A stretch of DNA of 64,000 nt from contig JAHHIM010000001.1 of assembly GCA_019358915.1 (NCBI GenBank), positions 96,001 through 160,000 of the forward strand, written 5' to 3'. Positions 28,719-41,151 of this stretch are shown in pieces. Position 1 is the first letter of the stretch, and every line of letters starts with the position of its first letter. The translations under genes were made by a program, and so were the position numbers. Under the pieces are notes generated by a model. The model was given only the letters and a program-made list of their open reading frames with translations. It had not been told where the DNA came from and made no database searches. Source of the stretch: Trichormus sp. ATA11-4-KO1. Lineage in GTDB: Bacteria > Cyanobacteriota > Cyanobacteriia > Cyanobacteriales > Nostocaceae.

Positions 28719-29585
28719 CTAACCCATAATTTCAATATCATACAACTCGCATAAGGTGCGGAGTTTTTGTTTCAGGCGATCGCGCAGACTCTCCGGCGCT
28801 ATCACTACACAATCGGGAGCATACTGCATAACTTCGCGGCTAAACCAAAAGCTACTTGATACACGTCTGATGACTCGGCGGACTCGCGGCTTATCTGGTA
28901 GCCATTCATTAATATTGTCTTCTGGTTTAGCTTGATACCCAAAAGCCAAGCCAGCAAATAAGTGCATTTCTACTTCTATTTCGTCTAATTGAGTCCGCCA
29001 CTCACCAGGAATAGAAAGCACAGCCGCCTCAGTAATTCTGTCTAAACGCAAACTCCAGTTGTGAATGAGTTCGGGAATATCAAAGTTTCCTTCTGTTTCT
29101 TCACACCAACAATCAAGATATTGCCGTTTTTCGTGCGGTTTCACTTTGGCGTGGCGCACTGTGAAATTTAATAAGCGTCCAGCTGCATCTTGATAAGAAA
29201 GCTGAAATGGTTGGTTTCGCAGAATGTAGTTATCTATCTGTAAGCGCCAAGTTGGGGGTAAATTTTCTAAGAAGCGTTCAATGTCGCTTCTCAGTGGTAT
29301 TGATAATTCGCTGCGTTCTAAAAGTAAGTTTGCAATAACTTGTGCTTGTTCGATTTGTCCAATGTCGGTTAATGCAGCAATACACCGATGTAATGCACGG
29401 ATACGGGTTTCTGACCAATTGTTATTGTTACCGATGAGTAACTTACGTTGGGCGATCGCTTCTACTAGCTTGGATATATTCGGGCGATCGCCCCACATCA
29501 TACCAAATTCTAAGGCGATCGCTTCTAATTCCGCTTTATCGCGTTCTGAAATAGAGAGAGTTATAGACTGACCTTTCCGACTCAT
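28719..29585 (-). CDS. CRISPR-associated WYL-domain transcriptional regulator
   Basis: Start MSRKGQSITLSIS (RHH-like); YLDCWC..HNWSLRLDRI WYL core; divergent from cas3'. Confidence 0.9.
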   Translation of the reverse strand: MSRKGQSITLSISERDKAELEAIALEFGMMWGDRPNISKLVEAIAQRKLLIGNNNNWSETRIRALHRCIAALTDIGQIEQAQVIANLLLERSELSIPLRSDIERFLENLPPTWRLQIDNYILRNQPFQLSYQDAAGRLLNFTVRHAKVKPHEKRQYLDCWCEETEGNFDIPELIHNWSLRLDRITEAAVLSIPGEWRTQLDEIEVEMHLFAGLAFGYQAKPEDNINEWLPDKPRVRRVIRRVSSSFWFSREVMQYAPDCVVIAPESLRDRLKQKLRTLCELYDIEIMG

Positions 29586-29590
29586 ATTTG

Positions 29591-29672
29591 TACGGACACT
29601 TTTATACGGATGTATATTGCCAACCTTTATTTTGCATGGCAATATAAGAAGTAACAACCAGTTACGGACACT
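29591..29672. promoter_or_regulatory. WYL/cas3 divergent promoter with operator-like repeats
   Basis: TACGGACACT at 29591 and 29663; 10-bp inverted repeat TATATTGCCA-N14-TGGCAATATA at 29613-29646. Confidence 0.6.
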
Positions 29673-29682
29673 ATTTAAGTGT

Positions 29683-31860
29683 ATGTCCGAAGAATACCAA
29701 ATTACACTCAAGCCTGTTTATTCACAAACCGTCCCCACACCTGACGGAGTGAAATTACCTAAAGATTGGTCACTTTCATGGCATCAATTAGCTACTTTAG
29801 AAGCTTTGCGCGATCCAAACATTGATGTAGTATTCAACACAGCCATGACAGGCGATGGTAAAAGCTTGGCTGCATATTTAGAAGTTCTCCAAGGTATATT
29901 TTCCGCTATTGGACTTTACCCAACTAATGAACTCGCTCGTGACCAAGAAACACAAATTAGAGGATATATTCAGCAATTTCAGCCGGAAGATGAGCCGCGT
30001 GTAGTTAGATTAAGTGGGGCTGATTTAGAAATTTATGCCGAAAATGAGGGGTTAAAAAAAGGGGCAGCAATTTCTACTCTCACTAGCCAAAGAGAGGCAT
30101 TATTAACTAACCCTGATATTTTTCACTATTTGCATCGAGGGGCTTATATAATTCGTGGCGATAGCCCAGACAAGTTATGGGGAAGAATCGATAAAGATTT
30201 TGACTTATTTATTTTTGATGAATTTCACGTTTTTGCTGCTCCCCAAATTGCCAGTGTAATTAACACAATGTTATTAATTCGTTGTACAAATCGCCGCAAA
30301 AAATTTCTGTTTCTCTCAGCCACACCAGATACAAATTTAATTAGCAGGTTCCAACAGGTAGGATTTCGTTGTCAAGTCATCAATCCCATTGCCCAAAATA
30401 AATATCAATTTCCTGAGACACCAGAACAAGGACAGCAACTGCAAACACAGGGCTGGCGAAAGGTAGCGCGAACAATTTCACTGAATTTTATTCCTCTAGA
30501 ACCTACTTTTAAAGCTTCGGAAACTTGGCTAAAAGAAAATAGTGATTTAATTTTGGCTCAATTTCAACAGTATCCAGGTAGTAAAGGAGCAATTATTCTC
30601 AATTCAATTGCCGCAGTCAAGCGTTTAAAGGTATTTTTTCAAGAAATTCTCCAGCCTTATGAATTAACAGTAGGAGAAAATACAGGGCTTTCTGGAAAAG
30701 GCATAAAAGAGCGAAGCCTTACGGCTGATTTAGTTATCGGCACTAGCACAATTGATGTGGGTGTTGATTTTAAAATCAATTTTCTAATTTTTGAGTCATC
30801 GGATGCAGGTAACTTTATTCAGCGTTTAGGGCGCTTAGGTAGACATGACGGCTATGAGAAAAATGGTCAAATAATTAAGTTTGAAAACTTTACAGCTTTT
30901 GCCCTTGTGCCTAACTTTTTAGTAGAACGTTTATTTCAGGTAGATGCACCACCATTAGAGGTAAATAGTATTTATGAGCGACCATCTTTTCACAATACAA
31001 TTAGCGAGAACTATCGACAAATTAATGATTTTCGCGGTTATTATCGCCGTTGGGGTGCTGTACAATCATTTTGGCTGTATTACAAATTGAGCGATCGCAC
31101 AATTAAACAACAGTATGCTCAAAGCCGAGAACAGTTTCAAAAAGCCTGTGAACAAGTATTTGAAAGCAAGCTGAATTCCATAGCCGGACGTGTTTCAGGA
31201 TGGGCGAAAGACTGGAAAGTACTATCAGGTAAATCAGGAAATCCCATCGCTGACGATGCGTCTAGTTTTCGCGGTTCTAGTCCTTTGCAATGCGGTTTAT
31301 ACGATTTAACCGAAGAGAACGAAGCCGACAGGTTTAAAACCTACGATTTACCAGGTATTTTGGGGAATTTAGAAATTGAAATGTGGACAGAGGCAGGATT
31401 TATACGGACACTTAAAGAAACCGCACAACGCACAGAACAACCCATAGCCAAAGGTAGATTTGCTCATTGTCTAGCATTTATGAAGTTGCGTTCCTACCGT
31501 GAGGAACGGCTGAACTGGAAGTTTACCTATGCTGGCGACTTACAGCTAATAGCTGATGCTTGGAAAGTTCAGGTTTTGACTGGTTTGGAAATTTGGCAAC
31601 CTGACAATCAATGGATTGGTGCAATTAACAAACGACTGAAGAAGGAAGGTTTGGTTTGTTACGTAATTCGCCGTCCTGTGTCTGAGGTGCGGATGCGGTT
31701 ACGGCTACCGATGCACTTTCAGATTTACCCCATTAGTGATCAGTATAGCTTTCATGATGTTAGTGCAAGCTGTGCGATCGCTTTTGGTCACTCTGCACTG
31801 CTGCTAGATACCCTCGCTTATACGTTTAAAAGCACAGGAGATGAGATATGGGTTGTTTAG
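29683..31860 (+). CDS. cas3: type I-D Cas3' helicase (no HD domain)
   Basis: AMTGDGKS Walker A, IFDEFH, SAT, QRLGRLGRH; start at MSEEYQITLK. Confidence 0.95.
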   Translation: MSEEYQITLKPVYSQTVPTPDGVKLPKDWSLSWHQLATLEALRDPNIDVVFNTAMTGDGKSLAAYLEVLQGIFSAIGLYPTNELARDQETQIRGYIQQFQPEDEPRVVRLSGADLEIYAENEGLKKGAAISTLTSQREALLTNPDIFHYLHRGAYIIRGDSPDKLWGRIDKDFDLFIFDEFHVFAAPQIASVINTMLLIRCTNRRKKFLFLSATPDTNLISRFQQVGFRCQVINPIAQNKYQFPETPEQGQQLQTQGWRKVARTISLNFIPLEPTFKASETWLKENSDLILAQFQQYPGSKGAIILNSIAAVKRLKVFFQEILQPYELTVGENTGLSGKGIKERSLTADLVIGTSTIDVGVDFKINFLIFESSDAGNFIQRLGRLGRHDGYEKNGQIIKFENFTAFALVPNFLVERLFQVDAPPLEVNSIYERPSFHNTISENYRQINDFRGYYRRWGAVQSFWLYYKLSDRTIKQQYAQSREQFQKACEQVFESKLNSIAGRVSGWAKDWKVLSGKSGNPIADDASSFRGSSPLQCGLYDLTEENEADRFKTYDLPGILGNLEIEMWTEAGFIRTLKETAQRTEQPIAKGRFAHCLAFMKLRSYREERLNWKFTYAGDLQLIADAWKVQVLTGLEIWQPDNQWIGAINKRLKKEGLVCYVIRRPVSEVRMRLRLPMHFQIYPISDQYSFHDVSASCAIAFGHSALLLDTLAYTFKSTGDEIWVV

Positions 31861-31861
31861 C

Positions 31862-31962
31862 GTTTCAATCCCTGATAGGGATTAATTTTGAGAAAAAGCT
31901 TACGGTTCTAAGCACAGACTTATTCGTTTCAATCCCTGATAGGGATTCATGAAGTTGTTATG
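31862..31962 (-). CRISPR. antisense mini-array: two 5'-degenerate repeats and one 27-nt spacer (crRNA-like regulatory RNA)
   Basis: AATCCCTATCAGGGATTGAAAC (3' 22-23 nt of the main repeat) ends at 31926 and 31862 on the minus strand; spacer GAATAAGTCTGTGCTTAGAACCGTAAG at 31925-31899. Confidence 0.92.
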
Positions 31963-31987
31963 TGCCTGTAAAGCTCTCTCACATAAG

Positions 31988-32017
31988 AGTATTCCATAAT
32001 CAGGTTGAATATGTCAA
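31988..32017 (-). promoter_or_regulatory. putative promoter of the mini-array
   Basis: TTGACA-N18-AATACT with TGn extension, about 25 nt upstream of the first pseudo-repeat. Confidence 0.45.
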
Positions 32018-32029
32018 TACTTAAAAATG

Positions 32030-32059
32030 GTTGAATAAGTCTGACCTTATAGCAATTTT
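32030..32059 (+). promoter_or_regulatory. PAM-flanked partial protospacer for the mini-array spacer
   Basis: GTT followed by GAATAAGTCTGaccttatagc: spacer positions 1-11, 14-17, 19 and 21 match. Confidence 0.8.
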
Positions 32060-32068
32060 AGAAATTGC

Positions 32069-32097
32069 TTGACAAGAGGTTTCGTTTTATGTAGCTT
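32069..32097 (+). promoter_or_regulatory. sigma70-type promoter for the wHTH gene and possibly the TA-cas operon
   Basis: TTGACA-N17-TAGCTT; SD AGGAG before the ATG at 32188. Confidence 0.7.
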
Positions 32098-32187
32098 CAG
32101 ATTATACAAATCAGTGAAGCTCAGAGATATAACAAGAATTTGGGCGGCTATAGCTGTATGTCAAAAGTTGTAAATTAGGAGAATACT

Positions 32188-32385
32188 ATGCTTGTCAAAT
32201 CGACAAACCTTGAGAAATTAATTGTACTTCTCAAGGATGGTAAATGGCATTCGAGCGATGAATTAGCAGCAAAGGTTAGTTTTCGATTTGGACACACTGT
32301 GTTTGAAGCTCGCAAGAAAGGCTACTTTGTTGAAACAAGGCAAGTTGCTCATAACCAATTTCAGTATCGGTTGTTAGCAGCGTAA
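32188..32385 (+). CDS. small winged-HTH protein (65 aa)
   Basis: LLKDGKWHSSDELA..ARKKGYFVET...YRL pattern of a HTH_11-like wHTH; strong SD. Confidence 0.8.
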   Translation: MLVKSTNLEKLIVLLKDGKWHSSDELAAKVSFRFGHTVFEARKKGYFVETRQVAHNQFQYRLLAA

Positions 32386-32403
32386 CCGATTCGATAGCTT
32401 ATC

Positions 32404-32604
32404 AGGGAATTTCTCTAGCTAAATTAGAGAATTCCCTTACAAGAGGGAAGCACAAGCTTGCGGTATTAAGCTCAGGCGTAAGCAGTCTTCATCCCCAACA
32501 GCTTGGCTGATGGTTGAGTAAGCCACTTAGAAGGCCACATCTTAAGACAGTAAGTTTTAGTCCAGCTTCCCTCTTTAGAAATTCTGCCACCAATGGTGGC
32601 AGAA
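32404..32604. other. structured non-coding segment (hairpin, 135-nt IR-closed domain, hairpin)
   Basis: Hairpin 32404-32437; AAGAGGGAAGC (32441) pairs with GCTTCCCTCTT (32575); hairpin TTCTGCCACC-AAT-GGTGGCAGAA 32582-32604. Confidence 0.55.
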
Positions 32605-32679
32605 ACTTGAATTAACATTGGAACTTACAAAATTAGTATCTAATTAATTAATTTATTCACCCAACTGGAGAATGAGCAA

Positions 32680-33132
32680 ATGCAAAATAATAACCCAACA
32701 ATTGCAGAACTTACAGAACTTTCCTTACAACTACCTGAAAAAATACCTTACTTAAAAATGTTAGTCCTCTTTGGTTCTAGAGCTACTGGTAATACACACG
32801 CAAATAGTGACTGGGATTTTGCTATTTTGTGTGATGAAGAACAGCGTCAGGCTTACACGGAAAATAATATTGGGGGTTTGTTTGAATTACCTATGCTGAT
32901 TGGCGAAGTATTGAAAATTAATTCTGACCATATTGATATTGTACAACTTAATCATTGTTCCGAATTAATAGCACATTTTGTTGCTCGTGATGGTCAGGTT
33001 TTATATGAGGATGAGGTGAAAGAATTTGATAAATTTAAACAAAAAGTATTACTGAGTAATTCAGACATCAAAAAAATTGAACATACTAAACGCAAAAATA
33101 TTGAACAGTTTCTAGCAAGATGGGGTGTATGA
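32680..33132 (+). CDS. mntA: MNT minimal nucleotidyltransferase antitoxin
   Basis: LFGSRATG...SDWDFA (GSx10DxD) and IDIV. Confidence 0.92.
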   Translation: MQNNNPTIAELTELSLQLPEKIPYLKMLVLFGSRATGNTHANSDWDFAILCDEEQRQAYTENNIGGLFELPMLIGEVLKINSDHIDIVQLNHCSELIAHFVARDGQVLYEDEVKEFDKFKQKVLLSNSDIKKIEHTKRKNIEQFLARWGV

Positions 33133-33572
33133 AAAATATAGATACTGTAATTATTTCAACTCGATTAGAGTTTATTGTTCGTTACCTTGAGAATTTGAAG
33201 AGATTCGAGGCGATTAGTTGGGATGATTACGTAAATAGCTTTGATACTCAACTAATTATTGAAAGGCTTCTACAATTAATGACTCAAGCGGCGATAGATA
33301 TCAACGACCATATATTGTCAAAGCTAAATCCTGGAAAGTCGCCAACTAACTTTGAGGCTTTTATTGAAATTGGTAAATATGGTGTCATTTCAACCGAATT
33401 AGCAGCACAATTGGCACCATCAGGAGGATTAAGAAATCGGCTGGTTCATGAATATGACGATATAGATCCAACAGAAGTTTTTAAAGCAATTAGTTTCGCG
33501 TTACAACAATATCCGCTTTACGTGCGGCAAATAAATACTTATTTAATTTCATTGGATGTAGATAATGACTAA
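33129..33572 (+). CDS. hepT: HEPN (DUF86) RNase toxin
   Basis: RNRLVHEY (RX4H plus Tyr); ATGA overlap with the MNT stop. Confidence 0.92.
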   Translation: MKNIDTVIISTRLEFIVRYLENLKRFEAISWDDYVNSFDTQLIIERLLQLMTQAAIDINDHILSKLNPGKSPTNFEAFIEIGKYGVISTELAAQLAPSGGLRNRLVHEYDDIDPTEVFKAISFALQQYPLYVRQINTYLISLDVDND

Positions 33573-36500
33573 AGAAACAAACCCCAAGGAAGAAAATCAA
33601 CAAGTATCTTTGTTTGAAAATAATACTGAAGAAGCGGAAGAATTAGAAGATAATTTCTTAAATCAAGACTTTGGCTTTGATGGTGATTCTTCAGACCGTA
33701 CTATTGAAACTGAAGGCGAATTACTCACACTCAAACTATTGCGAGAGGCAATTCAGGCGCAAAATGCTGATGATCAAGTAATGGCAGATTTTGCCGAGTA
33801 TGTTTTACCAAACTTGCTACGAATAGCCCTTGGTGTCACGGCTAAAGGAGGTAAATTTTTTGATGAAATTGACCAACAACGAGAAGCAGAAGGTAAAACT
33901 AAAGTTAGGCGAGATAATGCAGCTGATCAATCTCTAAATACTCACTTACTCAACGGTTTATTTCCCGCTAACTTAATTGAAAAGCGTTTAGAAAAACTCA
34001 ATACCACAGTGCGGCGAGTGGTGAAAGAAAGAGAACGCCGATTAGTAATTGCTGGGTTTATTTTACATGATTTTGAAAAATTTCCTGATGCACCAGAAGA
34101 TTGTCGTAAGTTACCGTTAGCAGAACATCGTCAAATTATTGATCAAAAAGTTCGCCAGTTAGGACTTGATAAGTTTATTAACCCAGATAATTCAGAAGCT
34201 TATCTGGAGTATTTAGATGATTTGTTGTGCATGGCTTATAATGCTCAACGACGCTGGGATACTAACTGGAATTTTTCGGAATTTGGCTTAAATCCTGTTT
34301 TGAAAGACCGCACCCTTCGCAGTCTGTCTGATTTAACTTGTTTGGCTGATTCTCTCGCCTCAATTGTTAAGCATCCCCAAGATGCAGAAAATACCAGACT
34401 CCAAGAAATTATCCATAATCTGAGTGATGGACAGTTGAAATTTACCTATCACAGCATTGCTGAAAATAGGGGTGTTTTAACTAATGTAGTGAATAATGCT
34501 TTAATTCAGACTCATACCAGTCTCAACACTGATGAAAATATCTACTATGAACCTTTGTTATATCTGCCAACAGGTGTAATTTATCTGGCTTTGCGTAATG
34601 CGCCGCCTATTGCACAAGAAGACTTATCAGACCGTGTAGTTGATAGTATTAAATCACTTTGTGCAGGTCAATTGCGTCTCAGACAAACAGGATTTGGTAG
34701 AGATGGCAAAGGTATGAAATATGCCGAATATTACAATTTATTTTTTGATGACTTAGGTTTAATGCGAGTAGCGTTAGATGCTACATTACGTGTATTAAAT
34801 TCTAATAAGCCTTCGGTTGCTCAAAGTCGTAGTGAAAATCTGATTAAATTTCAGCAACGAAAGGTTTTATCTGCTGATTATGACTTTAAATTTGCAGATG
34901 ATATCCGCATCGACCAAATAGCAGAATTTGGTGATTTAATTAGTAGGAAGATTTGGGAAGAGACTGTTAATCGCATTGACTCTGCTAGGAAGCAAGATAA
35001 AAAACTACCAGCAGTCCCAGATTTAGATTTAACTCACAAAATTGCAGAGTTTTGGAATTTATCAGCATATTTACCCCCAATTCGAGAAATTCAACGCATT
35101 AATGAAAGTCTCAAAGAAAATAAGTTAAAAGGAAATACTGGCGGAGTACCTTATGAATGGTATTACCTTGCGGCTAAATATCTGGAACGTCATCCTGGTA
35201 TTGAAAATGTCCGCGACTCTTGTCAGCAAGTCATCGATTACTTAACAACTTTGATTTCGCCGATTATTTCTCAGTACAACTTACCTGATGGCTGGGATGA
35301 TTTAAGGCTGTGGGTAAATCGCGTTGTGATGTTACCAAATACAAATCAAGAATTAGCAACTGAAACTCAAATTCAAACATTTTTAGATGAGCTAAGTAAC
35401 TACAATGCTGCCAAAAAACCAGGACGAGGACGGCAACTCATTTGCTCAATTTCTCACTCAGCTTACACTGTAACTGAGCAAATGGAATCAGCAGTTTTAT
35501 TTACGCCGCAAGTTTATACAAATAAGCAAATGTTAGGAGGTTCCAATGCCAAGCGTAACATCTCCAGTATTGCTGGTGTGGAGATGATGTTGAGGCAAAT
35601 ATTGATGAATCAAACTCAAGCAGTTGGTAAACGATTTGAAGATGGCAAATATCGCTATCTCTATTTTTACCCTACTTATTACTTCACACCAGAAACTAAT
35701 AAGTTTTTGCAGAAAGCTTACAACGGCATTGCTCAAACTCGCTTTGATACAAGCGTCCGTAATCATTTCATTAGTAAGGATTTACAGGCAAATTTAGCCA
35801 GAGAAAATTATCAAAGTGTAGATAGTTTCTTAATTGACGAAAATCTCCAGGCTGATAAAGACCGCACATTTAAGCTTTCTTATCCTGAAGACCAGCCTTT
35901 AACATTTTACTTCATGGCACTGCCACCAGGAAGAGACAGCACAGATACAGAATCTTGGGTAATGCCTAGTTGGTTAGCCTTTGCTTTCCCGATGATTTTA
36001 GACGTGAAAACAGTGGTTTCTGAGTCGCCAATTCCACCTTTTAATGATGGTTCTGAGTTTGAGGAAAGCGTTTTCTTAGATAGTGCGCCTCATGCTTTCC
36101 GTGCATTGGTAAGACGAGACAGATTTCGTCTTGACTACATCCTTGAAGGTTGGCAAGAAAACGGTATTCAATACCCTGCACCGTTGAATGTGCTTACAGC
36201 CGCCTACGCCATTCACTTAGATGTGAATGCTAGACAAGGTAAAACTGGTTACGATGCCAACTGGGGTAGATTCACAGAACTAGCAAAGGATTTTGAAACC
36301 AGTCCTTTGTACGTTTTCGCTTATCTCAATCGTTGGGTGCGTAACCAAGGAGTGGAAACAGCGCGAATCGAAAAAGTTAGGCTTTATGTCTATCATTTTT
36401 ACCCTTGTTTTGACCCCTATGTTAAATATGAAAAAAATATGGAGCAATTAATTGTGGGAGAAGAATCACACCTGAATCATCCAAAAATTTTAACAGATTT

Positions 36501-36903
36501 ATACCGCCGATTTTATCGGGCAAATAAGCGTTATAATCCCAAATCTAATGCTGTTTTAAAACCCATTGATATTGCAGCCGAAACTATTCTTAAAGCTGAA
36601 TCAAGTGTATTTCAAGGAGAAACATTAGTGGCGGCTGTAGCTGCGGAAGTCTTTAAACTCATGGATCGCGTTCATTCTTCTACTGCTGAGGGACGTTGGG
36701 TAATGAGTAAACGTGAAGAAGAACGGCAAGCTGTTTTAGAGTTTGCTAAATATTTTGTACAGGAGGTATTTGAGAAATCATTTGCAGGCGATCGCGCTCG
36801 TTTAGCAGGTCGCCAACTTAACTTAATTCGAGATACTTGTGAATTTCTTTATCGGCTTGAAGATGACAAAGAAAACGCAGAAAAAGTTGTAGAAACCGAA
36901 TAA
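33565..36903 (+). CDS. cas10d: type I-D large subunit Cas10d/Csc3 with N-terminal HD nuclease
   Basis: DQSLNTHLLNG..ILHDFEK HD motif; 1112 aa; operon context. Confidence 0.95.
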   Translation: MTKETNPKEENQQVSLFENNTEEAEELEDNFLNQDFGFDGDSSDRTIETEGELLTLKLLREAIQAQNADDQVMADFAEYVLPNLLRIALGVTAKGGKFFDEIDQQREAEGKTKVRRDNAADQSLNTHLLNGLFPANLIEKRLEKLNTTVRRVVKERERRLVIAGFILHDFEKFPDAPEDCRKLPLAEHRQIIDQKVRQLGLDKFINPDNSEAYLEYLDDLLCMAYNAQRRWDTNWNFSEFGLNPVLKDRTLRSLSDLTCLADSLASIVKHPQDAENTRLQEIIHNLSDGQLKFTYHSIAENRGVLTNVVNNALIQTHTSLNTDENIYYEPLLYLPTGVIYLALRNAPPIAQEDLSDRVVDSIKSLCAGQLRLRQTGFGRDGKGMKYAEYYNLFFDDLGLMRVALDATLRVLNSNKPSVAQSRSENLIKFQQRKVLSADYDFKFADDIRIDQIAEFGDLISRKIWEETVNRIDSARKQDKKLPAVPDLDLTHKIAEFWNLSAYLPPIREIQRINESLKENKLKGNTGGVPYEWYYLAAKYLERHPGIENVRDSCQQVIDYLTTLISPIISQYNLPDGWDDLRLWVNRVVMLPNTNQELATETQIQTFLDELSNYNAAKKPGRGRQLICSISHSAYTVTEQMESAVLFTPQVYTNKQMLGGSNAKRNISSIAGVEMMLRQILMNQTQAVGKRFEDGKYRYLYFYPTYYFTPETNKFLQKAYNGIAQTRFDTSVRNHFISKDLQANLARENYQSVDSFLIDENLQADKDRTFKLSYPEDQPLTFYFMALPPGRDSTDTESWVMPSWLAFAFPMILDVKTVVSESPIPPFNDGSEFEESVFLDSAPHAFRALVRRDRFRLDYILEGWQENGIQYPAPLNVLTAAYAIHLDVNARQGKTGYDANWGRFTELAKDFETSPLYVFAYLNRWVRNQGVETARIEKVRLYVYHFYPCFDPYVKYEKNMEQLIVGEESHLNHPKILTDLYRRFYRANKRYNPKSNAVLKPIDIAAETILKAESSVFQGETLVAAVAAEVFKLMDRVHSSTAEGRWVMSKREEERQAVLEFAKYFVQEVFEKSFAGDRARLAGRQLNLIRDTCEFLYRLEDDKENAEKVVETE
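36454..36903 (+). CDS. cas11d: Cas11d small subunit from internal translation start (149 aa)
   Basis: In-frame GTG 9 nt after GGAG, just before LTDLYRRFYR; internal Cas11d translation is established for type I-D. Confidence 0.6.
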   Translation: MGEESHLNHPKILTDLYRRFYRANKRYNPKSNAVLKPIDIAAETILKAESSVFQGETLVAAVAAEVFKLMDRVHSSTAEGRWVMSKREEERQAVLEFAKYFVQEVFEKSFAGDRARLAGRQLNLIRDTCEFLYRLEDDKENAEKVVETE

Positions 36904-36962
36904 GTAAATCTTTTATTTTGGTAAACGCAAACCAATAGTAAATCATTCATTGGAGACTAATT

Positions 36963-37973
36963 ATGTCATTTCTCAAAACAGTTGAATCCAAATTTTTTCA
37001 ATCTAAAATTCCCTACAAACCAATGGGTAAATATGTCCATTTTATCACTGTACGCATCACTGAATCTTATCCTCTATTTCAAACAGATGGAGAATTAAAT
37101 AAAGCCAGAGTGAGGGCTGGAGTTCAAGACAAAGCAACAATTAGCCGTTTGTCAATGTTTAAGCGCAAACAGTCTACACCAGAGCGTTTAGTTGGTCGGG
37201 AATTGTTGCGTAACTATGGCTTGATGACTGCGGAAGAATGCGAATATAATGTCAATTTTGCCATGGATAATCCTGATTGTATTATTTACGGTTTTGCTAT
37301 TGGTGATTCTGGTTCGGAAAAATCTAAGGTTGTAGTAGACACCGCATTTTCAATTACCGCTTTTGACGAATCACACGAAACTTTCACTCTTAACGCTCCC
37401 TATGAGAATGGCACAATGGCTTCTAAGGGTGAAAATGGTTCTAAACCTGGTGAAGTTACCAGTCGCATTAATCAGCAAGACCATATTAGACCACAAGTTT
37501 TCTTCCCTAGTATTGTTACCCTCAAAGACCCCACTGAAGCTAGCTTCCTTTACGTTTTTAATAATATCCTCAGAACGCGCCACTATGGAGCGCAAACTAC
37601 CCGTACAGGTCGTGTGAGAAATGAGTTAATTGGTGTTGTATTTGCAGATGGAGAAATTACTAGTAACCTGCGTTGGACTCAAGCAATATATGACCAAATG
37701 AAGGCACAAAAGACAATCAATCCTCCTGATCCTTTGGATGAAGATGATGTAATTACTGCTGCTAAAGGTGCAATTGAGGCTTTAATGGCTGATGAGTTTA
37801 TTGTGCATACTGATTTCATCGGTGAAGCTTTTTCACCTCTGCTGCATGAAGTTAAGAGCCTCGTAGGTGACGAAACAGGAATTAAGGCAGTTTTAGAAAA
37901 AGCTGATGCAGAGGCTAAAGATTATGCCAATACACATATTAGCAAAAAGAAAACTGCTGCTAAGGCTAAGTAA
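36963..37973 (+). CDS. csc2: Cas7/Csc2 backbone subunit
   Basis: FKRKQSTPERLVGRELLR, PDCIIYGFAIG, YGAQTTRTG. Confidence 0.95.
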   Translation: MSFLKTVESKFFQSKIPYKPMGKYVHFITVRITESYPLFQTDGELNKARVRAGVQDKATISRLSMFKRKQSTPERLVGRELLRNYGLMTAEECEYNVNFAMDNPDCIIYGFAIGDSGSEKSKVVVDTAFSITAFDESHETFTLNAPYENGTMASKGENGSKPGEVTSRINQQDHIRPQVFFPSIVTLKDPTEASFLYVFNNILRTRHYGAQTTRTGRVRNELIGVVFADGEITSNLRWTQAIYDQMKAQKTINPPDPLDEDDVITAAKGAIEALMADEFIVHTDFIGEAFSPLLHEVKSLVGDETGIKAVLEKADAEAKDYANTHISKKKTAAKAK

Positions 37974-37978
37974 CAGCT

Positions 37979-38686
37979 ATGGCTATGATCTACCGATGTC
38001 AATTAGAACTACATGACAGCCTATATTTTGCTACTCGTGAAATCGGGCGACTTTACGAAACAGAGCCAGTAATTCATAATTATGCTCTCTGTTATGCACT
38101 CGGTTTAGTTGATAGCGAAGTCTACTCTACTATAGTGGCTGAAGAACATTCCTATCGCTATTTTTGCCCTGAACAAGTGCCAAAATATGAGGAGCATTTA
38201 ACACCACTCAATCAACAGGGAATTTACATTACTCCGGCTCGTTCTATCAAACATTCAGCCATTCTCAATACCTGGAAGTATGCTAACAATAACTACCATG
38301 TTGAAATGGAGAAAACACAGAAGAATATTCCTAGCTTTGGTAGAGCAAAAGAAATAGCACCAGAAAGTCAATTTGAGTTTTTCGTTATTTCTCAAAAAGA
38401 CATCAAACTACCAAAGTGGATTCGCTTGGGTAAATGGATGAGTAAGGCTGAGGTGACAGTTACAGAATTGCCGAAACCTAAAACTAATGGAGGAATCTTC
38501 ACCTGTAAACATCCCTTAAACCCTTTAGATGTGATGTTCACTCATCAAGTGATTAGTTACGATGTAGTGAATATGCCTCCAGTTAGTCTAATTCAAAATG
38601 TGCAAATTAGAGGAGAATATTACCAGTTTGATGCTTTAAAAGACTTAAAAATTCCAGCGAGAATGGAATACCGTTTTCGTAGTTAA
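37979..38686 (+). CDS. csc1: Cas5/Csc1
   Basis: LHDSLYFATRE, HNYALCYALG, WIRLGKWMSK. Confidence 0.95.
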   Translation: MAMIYRCQLELHDSLYFATREIGRLYETEPVIHNYALCYALGLVDSEVYSTIVAEEHSYRYFCPEQVPKYEEHLTPLNQQGIYITPARSIKHSAILNTWKYANNNYHVEMEKTQKNIPSFGRAKEIAPESQFEFFVISQKDIKLPKWIRLGKWMSKAEVTVTELPKPKTNGGIFTCKHPLNPLDVMFTHQVISYDVVNMPPVSLIQNVQIRGEYYQFDALKDLKIPARMEYRFRS

Positions 38687-38718
38687 TTACAATTGCTAGA
38701 TTACTCCCCACATCCATC

Positions 38719-39330
38719 GTGAAATACTATCAACAACAACCCAACGCCTTCCCCAGCGACTACTTAAATAACTTGTGGGGAGTAATCCAGGCTTGTCCTT
38801 ACTTTGCTACCAACAACCTTAACCGTGATTTTGTCGCCACTAAAGGATTTTCTGTTGTATTCAAACGATCGCACATCCCCACAGTAGAACAAAAATTCCC
38901 TTACTTCAAGCCATACCTAGATTTAGCTCTCCAAGAGAGTTGTAATGCTTTTTACCTCAATCCTTTACAGCTAAAAGAAGGTTCCCGTGTAGATCCGCAC
39001 ATTGATCGCTCTTTGCGTTCTTACTGCAAAACGGTTGAACCGCCTGCGGTTGTCAGTGTTCTGTATGTGCGATTACCAGAGAATATGGAAGGGGGAGAAC
39101 TACTACTCAAGTCGCACAAACGCCAACTTGGGGAAATTAAGCCACAAGTAAATACATTACTCTACTTTCAAGGTGATTTAACCCACTCCGTCAACGCCGT
39201 GAAAACACCAGGAAATCGCCTGAGTTTGGTTTGTGAACAGTATAGTTTAAGTAATGCTGAACTCGCAGAAATACCAGAGTTTACCATCGAATCAAGAATT
39301 GCTCAATCTACAACAAAAAAACGCAAGTAA
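38719..39330 (+). CDS. 2OG-Fe(II) oxygenase inside the cas operon
   Basis: PHID, GGELLL, LTHSV, RLSLV (HxD...H...RxS). Confidence 0.88.
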   Translation: MKYYQQQPNAFPSDYLNNLWGVIQACPYFATNNLNRDFVATKGFSVVFKRSHIPTVEQKFPYFKPYLDLALQESCNAFYLNPLQLKEGSRVDPHIDRSLRSYCKTVEPPAVVSVLYVRLPENMEGGELLLKSHKRQLGEIKPQVNTLLYFQGDLTHSVNAVKTPGNRLSLVCEQYSLSNAELAEIPEFTIESRIAQSTTKKRK

Positions 39331-39360
39331 TTTCTTGAATTTTTAATTTTTAATTGTTAT

Positions 39361-40200
39361 ATGCCTCATAGCCTTATTCTTAACTTACTCCCTCAGTCGC
39401 CTATTCCATCCCAATATCTCACAGGCAGACATCTACACGCTTTATTTTTAACTCTTGTCAGTTCCGTAGATCGAAAATTAGGCGATCGCTTGCATGATGC
39501 TACCGCAGACAAAGCTTTCACCCTCTCTCCCCTACAAATTAGTAGCGCTAACTCTCCCCTTTTGAAGGGGGGTAGGGGGGGATGTAAACTACAACACTCA
39601 CATCAGCAACCCATTCCAGTCGGAACGCCTTGTTGGTGGCGCATCTCCCTATTAGATGACACACTCTTTAGCCAACTTACCCAACTGTGGCTCAATCTTA
39701 ACCCTAATCATCCTTGGCATCTTGGCCCGGCTGACTTGTATATTACCAGCATTCAAGGTACACCCCAATCTACTCAACCTTGGGCAAATGCCTGTAGCTA
39801 TGCTCAATTATACGAACAAGCCAGCGATCGCGATCGCACAATTGACCTTATATTCTCCACTCCCACTGCCTTCCGCCAAGGAAAATTTGACACTACTCTT
39901 CCCACTAGAGAATGTGTTTTTAATTCTCTAGTTTCCCGATGGAATAAATACAGTGGTATGGAATTTGACCACATTGCTATTGAGTCAATATTTCCCTCTT
40001 TCATCAACATACATACAGAAATATTAGCCGACTCTCGCAGCAAATTTATTGGCATTATCGGAGAAGTTAGTTATCGGATTTTAGGAGAAATTGAACCAAT
40101 ACAAATTAAGCAAATTAATGCTTTAGCTGACTTTGTTTTATATGCAGGAATTGGACGAAAAACCACAATGGGTATGGGGATGGTGCGACGGCGACATTAA
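39361..40200 (+). CDS. cas6: Cas6 crRNA endoribonuclease
   Basis: GRHLHALF, FTLSPL, C-terminal G-loop YAGIGRKTTMGMG. Confidence 0.96.
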   Translation: MPHSLILNLLPQSPIPSQYLTGRHLHALFLTLVSSVDRKLGDRLHDATADKAFTLSPLQISSANSPLLKGGRGGCKLQHSHQQPIPVGTPCWWRISLLDDTLFSQLTQLWLNLNPNHPWHLGPADLYITSIQGTPQSTQPWANACSYAQLYEQASDRDRTIDLIFSTPTAFRQGKFDTTLPTRECVFNSLVSRWNKYSGMEFDHIAIESIFPSFINIHTEILADSRSKFIGIIGEVSYRILGEIEPIQIKQINALADFVLYAGIGRKTTMGMGMVRRRH

Positions 40201-40229
40201 CCACAACTTCAACTCAATTATGCAAAATA

Positions 40230-40361
40230 CTGACTAAATTTAAGCATCCCGTCATGCAAAAACAACATACCTATCAAGAATCATTTGAAATTCAAGGCCG
40301 TCTGCTAGCTAAATATCTCATGGGAGAAATTGACAAATATCCCCCATTAGTCATGAAATAA
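40230..40361 (+). pseudogene. cas1: 3' remnant of cas1 (cas4 and most of cas1 deleted)
   Basis: Frame LTKFKHPVMQKQHTYQESFEIQGRLLAKYLMGEIDKYPPLVMK* resembles cyanobacterial I-D Cas1 C-termini and sits directly before cas2. Confidence 0.85.
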
Positions 40362-40373
40362 TTAGTCAATTCT

Positions 40374-40646
40374 ATGTTTTTAGTAATTTCCTACGATATA
40401 TCCGAAGACAAGCGCCGCACCAAAATTCACAAAATTCTCAAATCTTACGGACAGTGGATGCAGTATTCCGTATTTGAGTGCGACCTCACCCAGACTCAGT
40501 ATGCTAAACTGCGATCGCGCTTGTCTAAAGTCATCAAACCAGACCAAGACAGCATCCGGTTTTATTTCCTCTGCGCTTGCTGTCAGGGAAAAGTTGAGCG
40601 CATTGGTGGTGAAATGCCAATCAACACCACAGTATTTTTTGCCTGA
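40374..40646 (+). CDS. cas2: Cas2
   Basis: VISYDISEDKRR..YGQWMQYSVFEC. Confidence 0.97.
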   Translation: MFLVISYDISEDKRRTKIHKILKSYGQWMQYSVFECDLTQTQYAKLRSRLSKVIKPDQDSIRFYFLCACCQGKVERIGGEMPINTTVFFA

Positions 40647-40899: not shown

Positions 40900-41151
40900 G
40901 TTCCAATTACTAATAATCCCTATCAGGGATTGAAACCAGACTTTTTATCGGGTTTGGGGGTAGAACCTGTGTTCCAATTACTAATAATCCCTATCAGGGA
41001 TTGAAACTTCAGCAAAAAAGTTATTTTAAAAGCGCTAAGAGACAGTTCCAATTACTAATAATCCTTATCAGGGATTGAAACGATTTTGGACAATTCCCAT
41101 GTCTAGCAGTTTTTGTTCCAATTACTAATAATCCTTATCAGGGATTGAAAC
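40900..41151 (+). CRISPR. type I-D array, 4 repeats and 3 spacers
   Basis: 37-nt repeat GTTCCAATTACTAATAATCC(C/T)TATCAGGGATTGAAAC at 40900, 40971, 41045, 41115; spacers 34, 37 and 33 nt. Confidence 0.98.

Follow-up and report, generated by a model that had tools for sequence, protein, structure and literature searches.

A candidate second target of a type I-D mini-array guide lies on the predicted promoter of the guide itself in cyanobacteria

Introduction

Can one CRISPR-derived guide RNA act on the genes in front of it and also limit its own transcription? The question is raised by a degenerate mini-array in a cyanobacterial type I-D cas locus, located in the window analysed here (the whole stretch of 64,000 nucleotides from Trichormus sp. 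ATA11-4-KO1). The original prediction for this locus proposed that one guide controls two divergent promoters through two tandem PAM-flanked matches, with a strong site for the downstream genes and a weaker one overlapping the -35 box of the mini-array.

Mini-arrays of this kind are known. In the accessible text of Shmakov et al. 2023 (PMC10120712), the mini-arrays of type I-D loci are placed between cas3 and cas10d, where they are predicted to regulate toxin-antitoxin and other regulator genes as cargo and have their targets upstream of these genes; for the I-E and I-F cases the text reports that no additional PAM-plus-seed targets were found. According to the CreR preprint (bioRxiv 10.1101/2023.03.10.532045), the CreA RNA of the type I-B CreTA system of Haloarcula hispanica represses both the toxin and the cas operon from one site between divergent promoters, and CreR RNAs of type I-E, I-B and V-A systems mediate cas autorepression that is relieved by competing crRNAs. 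For type I-D, creA-like elements are listed in Figure S7 of the same preprint.

Results

Type I-D locus and effector genes

Profile searches identified a type I-D cas locus with a full effector set in the window. The genes and arrays of the locus are as follows.

28719-29711, minus strand: WYL/WCX regulator
29617-31860, plus strand: cas3' (type I-D helicase) with a putative TTG start; TIGR03158 cas3_cyano, cut-off 69.1 bits
31862-31961, minus strand: mini-array encoding a predicted crRNA-like RNA, separate from the main array, with cas3' on one side and the cargo genes on the other
32188-32385, plus strand: wHTH gene, encoding a 65-aa winged-helix protein; first gene behind site 1
32680-33132, plus strand: mntA; NF047752, 83.6 bits, cut-off 60
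33120-33572, plus strand: hepT; NF047751, 111.6 bits, cut-off 60
33565-36903, plus strand: cas10d
33565-40200, plus strand: Cascade and processing genes, namely cas10d, csc2 (cas7d), csc1 (cas5d), a 2OG-Fe(II) oxygenase-like gene and cas6
40374-40646: cas2
40900-41151: main CRISPR array with four repeats

The effector genes cas3' (without an HD domain), cas10d (csc3), csc2, csc1 and cas6 were all found with profile scores above the respective cut-offs (TIGR03158, 456.8 bits; TIGR03174, 1234.1 bits; TIGR03157, 375.7 bits; TIGR03159, 276.2 bits; TIGR01877, 79.0 bits). The sole adaptation gene in the locus is cas2; cas4 and cas1 are absent from it, and cas1 matches are located on two other contigs (C52 and C68). 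Adaptation genes are usual in type I-D systems, but the effector is not defined by them. The Cascade and processing genes of this locus would use the mini-array guide.

The cargo genes mntA and hepT overlap by 13 nt and encode a nucleotidyltransferase antitoxin and a HEPN RNase toxin, the composition of a type VII toxin-antitoxin pair, and the pair (32680-33572) in turn overlaps the start of cas10d (33565). The 65-aa winged-helix protein has no confident family in Pfam or NCBIfam, its best match being PF22324 HTH_91 at an E value of 0.064, below the cut-off. In two related loci, L027 and L040, the wHTH is fused to MntA.

Mini-array and predicted guide RNA

The mini-array lies 1 nt from the cas3' stop codon, on the opposite strand. 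It consists of the following parts.

31862-31898, minus strand: psiR2, the downstream pseudo-repeat; its 22-nt 3' core with the Cas6 hairpin and ATTGAAAC equals that of the main-array repeat
31899-31925, minus strand: guide (pseudo-spacer) of 27 nt, read from 31925 downwards as GAATAAGTCTGTGCTTAGAACCGTAAG
31926-31961, minus strand: psiR1, the upstream pseudo-repeat; 22-nt core with 0 mismatches, source of the 8-nt 5' handle
31962-31987, minus strand: predicted mini-array leader, of which approximately 31966-31985 is complementary to the 3' part of the guide and the 5' part of psiR2

The 22-nt cores of both pseudo-repeats show 0 mismatches to the core of all four main-array repeats. The hairpin and the ATTGAAAC handle are kept in both units, while the 5' 15 nt of each is degenerate compared to the main repeat. 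The Rfam model CRISPR-DR5 matched both pseudo-repeats on the minus strand (psiR2, 34.8 bits; psiR1, 32.6 bits), in each case below the gathering score of 40. Repeat cores are spaced 64 nt apart in the mini-array versus 70-74 nt in the main array. The element has these sequence features of a CreA/CreR-type RNA gene: two repeat-like units around one spacer-like stretch with the processing and handle parts retained, a target with a cognate PAM and PAM-proximal complementarity, and a position of that target beside a predicted cas/toxin promoter. The GT that flanks both target sites is missing beside the guide itself.

Complementarity of the predicted leader extends over the guide from roughly position 19-21 on, and over the degenerate portion of psiR2. 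In the window, the fold had a minimum free energy of -38.3 kcal/mol and a z-score of -4.7. The z-score of the leader-guide duplex was below -2 in 18 of 28 loci, and the sequence of the duplex varies between clades. Since the 3' part of the guide is conserved without any matching target, such a duplex would account for its conservation. RNAalifold analysis of 24 mini-array transcripts returned only the repeat hairpins and a small intra-guide hairpin, with 0 compensatory pairs; the leader-guide helix was examined locus by locus because MAFFT leaves the variable leaders out of register. The intra-guide hairpin (GCTTA-N6-TAAGC) was considered as a terminator and dropped, as the U-run that follows it in the clade of the window is absent from other clades.

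The single RNA run found, a metatranscriptome sharing 0.05 of the sequence words, yielded three contigs from relatives, with 2-9 differences, that match only 31600-31852 at the end of cas3'; contigs of this kind are unable to show transcript starts, and none cover 31859-32700.

Two target sites in the window

The array and the wHTH gene are separated by 210 bp, and two GTT-flanked matches to the guide lie within this interval.

32004-32026, plus strand: site 2, with PAM GTT at 32004-32006 and protospacer positions 1-20
32030-32059, plus strand: site 1, with PAM GTT at 32030-32032 and protospacer from 32033
32052-32068: 17-nt palindrome GCAATTT-TAG-AAATTGC, between site 1 and the plus-strand -35 box

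The guide sequence used for comparison, GAATAAGTCTGTGCTTAGAA, was obtained by reverse-complementing the nucleotides immediately 5' to the repeat core at 31926. The 20-mer of site 2 (32007-32026) reads GAATATGTCAATACTTAAAA and matches the guide at 15 of 20 positions, with mismatches at positions 6, 10, 11, 13 and 18. Site 1 matches at 16 of 20 positions; its positions 1-11 are perfect (11/11), and positions 14-17, 19 and 21 also match. Site 1 is in addition part of inverted repeat I1. The sequence therefore bears out what was originally described: a GTT at 32004-32006 followed by a 15/20 guide match with mismatches including 6 and 18, placed 26 bp upstream of the GTT of the main site (32030-32032) and overlapping the minus-strand TTGACA at 32017-32012, which appears on the plus strand as TGTCAA at 32012-32017.

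A GTN followed by perfect matches to guide positions 1-5 and 7-9 is present at only six places in the genome (5,970,731 bases, both strands). Among these six, sites 1 and 2 have by far the longest further match, and they are 26 bp apart. Based on the genome-wide rate, roughly 1e-4 further sites of this kind would be expected by chance in the stretch of ~130 bp between the mini-array and the plus promoter. Site 2 is not a chance occurrence.

Predicted promoters on both strands

Promoters in this study are consensus predictions throughout. Two of them, facing in opposite directions, are relevant to the target sites.

31988-32017, minus strand: predicted mini-array promoter; -35 TTGACA at 32017-32012, an 18-nt gap, TG at 31996-31995 and -10 AATACT at 31993-31988
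32069-32097, plus strand: predicted promoter of the wHTH gene and possibly of the following operon; TTGACA at 32069-32074, N17, TAGCTT at 32092-32097

The mini-array promoter scored 10/12 in a consensus scan of 31750-32700 and was the best of three promoter-like sites found there; its TTGACA (32017-32012) belongs to the sole strong promoter-like site ahead of the mini-array. This -35 box is what site 2 positions 6-11 read on the opposite strand, and the site 2 PAM is located inside the spacer between the -35 and -10 elements. No terminator-like sites were found in the same 31750-32700 interval.

The plus promoter is absent from the list produced by the scan because its -10 hexamer fails the rule applied by the scan. 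In the related loci described below, an exact TTGACA-N17-TAnnnT is found downstream of site 1 in 24 of 33 cases, the TTGA columns are invariant in the alignment, and a GCTATCG within the promoter spacer is conserved, with GGTTTCG as its counterpart in the window. The distance from the first base of site 1 to the plus -35 ranges from 19 to 37 nt, most commonly 26 nt (9/31) and mostly 23-27 nt. It is 36 nt in the window, where the 32052-32068 palindrome intervenes; this palindrome was found only in the clade of the window, in which the distance is 36-37 nt, whereas elsewhere it is mostly 25-26 nt. A footprint of ~35 nt on site 1 would cover or abut the plus -35, and in the window would end at 32067, 1 nt short of it. 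Site 1 abuts this predicted promoter, which would serve the wHTH gene and probably also mntA-hepT-cas10d with the genes that follow. In the window, site 1 occupies the 51 bp that separate the two divergent -35 boxes.

Survey of related loci

Homologous intergenic regions were collected by a DNA search of 61 relatives. A search with the wHTH protein gave matches in 45 of 401 genomes of the class, and a scan of genome contigs with a wHTH alignment (7 close sequences) added 24 loci from Nostocales, Coleofasciculaceae, Microcoleus, Tychonema, Geitlerinema, Chroococcales and Spirulinaceae. The survey set comprised 47 loci with one or two repeat-core hits. A target site was called when a GT flank was followed by at least 8 of 10 seed matches to the guide of the same locus.

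Two PAM-flanked sites were found in 36 of the 47 mini-array loci, 33 of them non-identical. The two sites are in tandem in 27 of these 33, and site 2 is inverted in the other 6. PAM-to-PAM spacing in the tandem loci is 26 bp in 17/27 (range 24-32). Five of the six inverted loci have their PAMs 2 nt apart, and in this arrangement the sites point away from each other with no overlap; the inverted site 2 keeps its PAM and seed in all six, as it does by eye in L027 and L041, two loci with both sites in the inverted arrangement and another repeat variant. At the site 2 PAM, L036 has GCT in place of GT, and L042 is shifted by one base.

Eleven loci were left unclassified by the script. Inspection by eye of L062 revealed both sites in tandem with a third pseudo-repeat inserted. 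L006 and L009 retain the mini-array and have lost targets and cargo; L010, L014 and L032 have a single clear site; L044, L046 and L049 have other guide seeds and one inverted PAM-flanked site each; L020 is probably the end of an ordinary array, and L064 is decayed. As single-site loci exist, the second site is not obligatory.

Alignment of 26 of the 27 tandem loci (all except L065) showed that the GT of the site 2 PAM and positions 1, 2 and 5 of the protospacer are invariant, with conservation of 90% or more at positions 3, 4 and 7-10. Across these loci, the leader that separates site 2 from psiR1 was not alignable.

Promoter-like elements at site 2

The overlap between site 2 and a promoter-like element extends to the related loci. 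Among the 27 tandem loci, the reverse complement of site 2 positions 6-11 contains TTGAC in 18, CTGAC in 6, TTGAA in 1 and other sequences in 2. A -10-like hexamer follows 16-19 nt from the -35-like hexamer (17 or 18 nt in 25/27), with a TG in 19/27, and the element ends 15-57 nt (mostly ~40 nt) upstream of the psiR1 core. For the inverted loci, positions 5-10 give the hexamer (A/T)TGTCA or ATGTCG when read on the strand of the array. A TG-extended -10 lies inside the protospacer or shortly past it in 4/6, and likewise by eye in L027, L041 and L042; these loci have a poor -35, with a spacing of 19 nt in 3/6. Site 2 appears to sit on the predicted mini-array promoter, and the promoter-like element is conserved.

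The same bases seem to serve both elements. Position 10 of site 2 is a nearly invariant A that mismatches the guide T and supplies a T of TTGAC; with a perfect guide match, the hexamer would be CAGACA in place of TTGACA. Site 2 would therefore pay for its double coding as a -35 hexamer with mismatches at positions 10 and 11, and a protospacer that doubles as a -35 box would always be the poorer match of the two.

In the tandem arrangement, the prevailing 26-bp spacing (17/27) together with crRNA spacers of about 35 nt suggests competition between two footprints. It is plausible that the footprints abut or compete, as originally proposed, such that occupancy of the two sites would be mutually exclusive. 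This geometry also bears on a different role for site 2, in which Cascade binds there to strengthen or tune repression of the plus promoter together with site 1, or as a competing buffer. With a spacing shorter than the ~35-nt footprint, one occupied site could indeed exclude the other, and site 1 is already directly upstream of the minus -35. The plus -35, however, lies some 60 bp downstream of site 2, out of reach for occlusion; the sites of the inverted loci face away from each other without overlap; and the nearly invariant A that makes TTGAC at position 10 is explained only by a promoter located there. A tuning or buffering role in place of feedback is consequently considered unlikely.

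Pairing pattern and covariation

Type I-D Cascade flips out every sixth base, which remains unpaired, and recognizes a GTN or GTH PAM, as given in the accessible text of PMC10212523. Matching of site 2 to the guide of its own locus (n = 33) follows this periodicity: it was 0.97-1.0 at positions 1-5, 0.42 at position 6, 0.97-1.0 at positions 7-9, 0.06 at position 10 and 0.36 at position 11, the figures for positions 1-11 being partly built in by the seed threshold, and then 0.30 at position 12, 0.64-0.88 at positions 13-17, 0.30 at position 18 and 0.00-0.61, mostly under 0.4, at positions 19-30. Only positions 12-30, the third base of the PAM and the fixed location are free of bias from site picking. 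Site 1 has the same periodicity. Its match in the second 5-nt segment is consistently better (0.91 at position 10 and 0.64 at position 11), in agreement with the proposal that site 2 is the weaker of the two.

Site 2 also changes with the guide. Where a locus has a minority guide base at a pairing position, site 2 carries the corresponding base in 18 of 19 cases (position 1, 5/5; 4, 1/1; 7, 2/2; 8, 1/1; 11, 1/1; 13, 7/8; 17, 1/1), compared to 7 of 25 at positions 6 and 12 (2/12 and 5/13, respectively); for site 1 the count at pairing positions is 15/19. When guides were shuffled among loci 10,000 times, the observed site 2 total of 406/495 was never reached (0/10,000; maximum 394), and the observed site 1 total of 420 exceeded the maximum of 412, although counts and shuffle test alike overstate independence since the loci share descent.

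Three results, namely the pairing pattern, the covariation and the conservation, support site 2 as an RNA-guided site. Besides the main target, the locus has a second PAM-flanked seed match, which is conserved and changes together with the guide.

These data also weigh on the possibility that site 2 is merely the mini-array promoter beside a decayed duplicate of site 1, with nothing bound to it. The poorer match, with three effective mismatches within the first 17 positions in the window, and the lack of site 2 in some loci would fit such decay. A decayed duplicate would not be expected to keep PAM and seed invariant across several cyanobacterial orders while its flanks diverge, nor to track guide changes at positions 13 and 17 (8/9), which were unused in site picking, and this explanation is regarded as improbable.

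Least probable is the alternative named in the original prediction, a protein operator independent of Cascade, in which the GTTGAATA(A/T)GTC motifs would be operators of the wHTH or WYL protein and would resemble the guide through common descent of the pseudo-spacer. The wHTH gene is always present alongside the target sites, the sites of the inverted loci form a near-perfect palindrome like the operators of dimeric HTH proteins, and the conserved GCTATCG within the plus promoter suggests that a protein binds in this region; but two divergent targets of one guide must be palindromic anyway, and this explanation, disfavoured by the guide covariation and the tandem/inverted switch, predicts neither sites that track guide changes (18/19), nor freedom exactly at guide positions 6, 12 and 18, nor an invariant GT by both sites that is absent by the guide, nor a change from direct to inverted orientation. 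Independent RNA-guided sites allow such a switch.

Discussion

The comparative evidence (conserved PAM and seed, covariation, and a promoter-like element at site 2) supports the main points of the proposal that one guide acts on both divergent promoters. It is probable that guide-loaded type I-D Cascade binds the promoter of its own guide, which would constitute negative feedback, and that binding at site 1 represses the side of wHTH, MntA-HepT and cas10d.

In the mechanism envisaged, Cas6 would cut the mini-array RNA at both of the repeat hairpins that are retained, and the resulting guide RNA would be loaded into type I-D Cascade (Cas10d, Csc2, Csc1). The guide would pair with DNA over the first three 5-nt segments only (positions 1-17), and with pairing so limited Cascade would bind without licensing cleavage by Cas3'. 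Binding without cleavage has been shown for CreA/CreR-type RNAs of other subtypes. By analogy with CreA, CreR and type I-F mini-arrays, we infer that guide-loaded Cascade would bind its targets uncleaved and block RNA polymerase. Cascade on site 1 would repress wHTH and, by read-through, mntA-hepT-cas10d. Cascade on site 2 would keep RNA polymerase off the promoter of the guide, such that the guide would be made only until enough guide-loaded Cascade is present. Being weaker through its mismatches, site 2 would be the first to be vacated and the last to be filled. Both promoters would open whenever Cascade runs short, is inhibited or is taken up by other crRNAs.

Two considerations could reduce the contribution of site 2. 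By analogy with Haloarcula CreA, site 1 alone might repress both promoters and leave site 2 a smaller role, and binding through a 9-nt seed with a 3-nt bubble may be too weak to matter.

The element as a whole is already known, and the second target on its predicted own promoter appears to be what is new. The present locus resembles the type I-D mini-arrays in the accessible text of Shmakov et al. (PMC10120712) in subtype, in place, in its degenerate two-repeat array, in its toxin-antitoxin/regulator cargo and in a PAM-flanked, seed-only target in the likely cargo promoter, and it very probably belongs to one of the two Cas3 clades described there. In contrast to that text on type I-D, a second target, a target in the mini-array's own predicted promoter, and tandem and inverted arrangements are observed here. 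As with CreA, a degenerate mini-CRISPR RNA would guide Cascade by partial complementarity between divergent promoters, whereas CreA has a single target serving the creT and cas8 promoters and not its own, and its toxin is a small RNA instead of the HepT/MntA protein pair (bioRxiv 10.1101/2023.03.10.532045, accessible text). CreR is similar in that a crRNA-like RNA has a partial, PAM-flanked target beside a cas promoter; in the accessible text of that preprint, CreR feedback operates via Cas proteins only, and repression of the RNA's own promoter by a weaker second site is undescribed (bioRxiv 10.1101/2023.03.10.532045). The accessible texts of Shmakov et al., the CreR preprint and the 2026 Cracr preprint make no mention of a second target or own-promoter repression, and the literature searched, the supplementary protospacer list of Shmakov et al. 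aside, held no description of a crRNA-like RNA that represses its own promoter or of dual type I-D targets.

The locus can also be viewed as part of a wider design, advanced here tentatively and with somewhat more doubt than confidence: a widespread cyanobacterial type I-D homeostat with one guide, two graded outputs, a double-coded second site, two geometries and a leader helix. Such a circuit would hold the ratio of regulatory guide to Cascade steady, with the strong site on the cargo/cas promoter and the guide's own -35 box written inside the second protospacer. It would have been rebuilt in evolution both in tandem, with overlapping footprints, and back-to-back. The leader-guide helix would mask the guide from about position 19 onwards and permit only a cleavage-incompetent R-loop of ~17 nt.

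A natural short-match guide in type II-A systems, tracr-L, reportedly turns its effector into a repressor of a cas promoter. The tracr-L case is that of a class 2, single-protein effector with a single target, which is not known to be the promoter of the guide itself. Tracr-L of type II-A systems is also mentioned in the accessible text of bioRxiv 10.1101/2024.10.29.618823. CRISPR effectors are known to gauge their own abundance through CreA, CreR and tracr-L, and in the accessible accounts of the published circuits the regulatory guide is treated as constitutively made. If the present proposal is true, a second feedback loop would be closed, in which free Cascade would set the amount of regulatory guide. 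This would keep the regulatory guide from displacing immune crRNAs in Cascade, and would influence the speed at which the system and the HepT toxin are released once Cascade is inactivated by anti-CRISPRs or RNA decoys; it would also bear on the action of phage-borne mimics of such guides. The locus would further be a natural case in which one guide exerts graded CRISPR interference by means of designed mismatches, and in which a protospacer shares its bases with a -35 box.

The wHTH gene: predicted promoter and 5' untranslated region

The predicted plus-strand promoter preceding the wHTH gene contains a GCTATCG block within its 17-nt spacer, conserved among related loci (alignment A4). A conserved block is an unusual feature in a promoter spacer. 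The block may be a protein operator, and the wHTH protein is perhaps a candidate for binding it. A second conserved block, CTGAAGCCCAG-like, was observed in the 5' untranslated region of the gene in the related loci. Because this block is able to pair with the -10/start region (GCTTCAG ... CTGAAGC), a 5' hairpin on the wHTH mRNA is suggested.

32075-32091: promoter-spacer block, reading GGTTTCG in the window (A4)
32098-32135: conserved block of the 5' untranslated region (A4 columns ~205-240)
32052-32068: 17-nt palindrome, GCAATTT-TAG-AAATTGC

The palindrome, located between site 1 (the guide target with its PAM at 32030-32032) and the -35 element, is confined to the window's clade and lengthens the distance between the two from ~26 to 36-37 nt, a shift of roughly one helical turn.

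Predicted leader-guide helix of the mini-array RNA

The leader 5' of the first pseudo-repeat (psiR1) shows complementarity both to the distal guide, starting at approximately position 19-21, and to the degenerate 5' segment of the second pseudo-repeat (psiR2).

31886-31912 with 31966-31985: leader-guide/psiR2 duplex, minus-strand RNA, from complementarity and folding

The fold of the window's mini-array RNA has a z-score of -4.7, and the leader duplex scored below -2 in 18 of 28 loci drawn from the related loci L001-L074. The minus-strand RNA was the more stable strand in 18/28 loci, and the helix sequence varies from clade to clade. Such a helix may mask the distal guide or assist processing.

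Other matches to the guide

A GTN PAM followed by guide positions 1-5 and 7-9 was found at four further places in the genome, with little match beyond, and this number is close to chance expectation. These places are possible weak off-targets, or chance matches.

C2:52317, C5:7333, C22:66920 and C50:18032 (contigs of the same genome): PAM-plus-seed matches

Gene content and variant loci

The window's type I-D locus contains cas2 (within 40200-40646) and lacks cas1 and cas4; elsewhere in the genome, cas1 matches are present on two small contigs, C52 and C68. Two related loci encode fusions of a wHTH domain with an MntA-like nucleotidyltransferase (229-230 aa), which suggests that DNA binding by the MntA/HepT module is contributed by the small wHTH protein.

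38719-39330: 2OG-Fe(II) oxygenase-like gene, between csc1 and cas6
L027:1006-1695, minus strand: wHTH-MntA fusion
L040:1498-2190, plus strand: wHTH-MntA fusion

L006 retains the mini-array and an intact guide, with both targets and the cargo gone; in L009 a deletion fuses the guide to sequence matching window positions 32470-32560, downstream of the wHTH gene there; and L062 has an extra (third) pseudo-repeat inserted with the mini-array on one side and the two sites on the other. Mini-arrays with quite different guide seeds precede related wHTH genes in L044, L046 and L049, each with one inverted PAM-flanked target (seed match 10/10), the PAM end of which adjoins a plus-strand TG-extended -10 in L046 and L049. 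These three loci may represent a one-site form of the same circuit.
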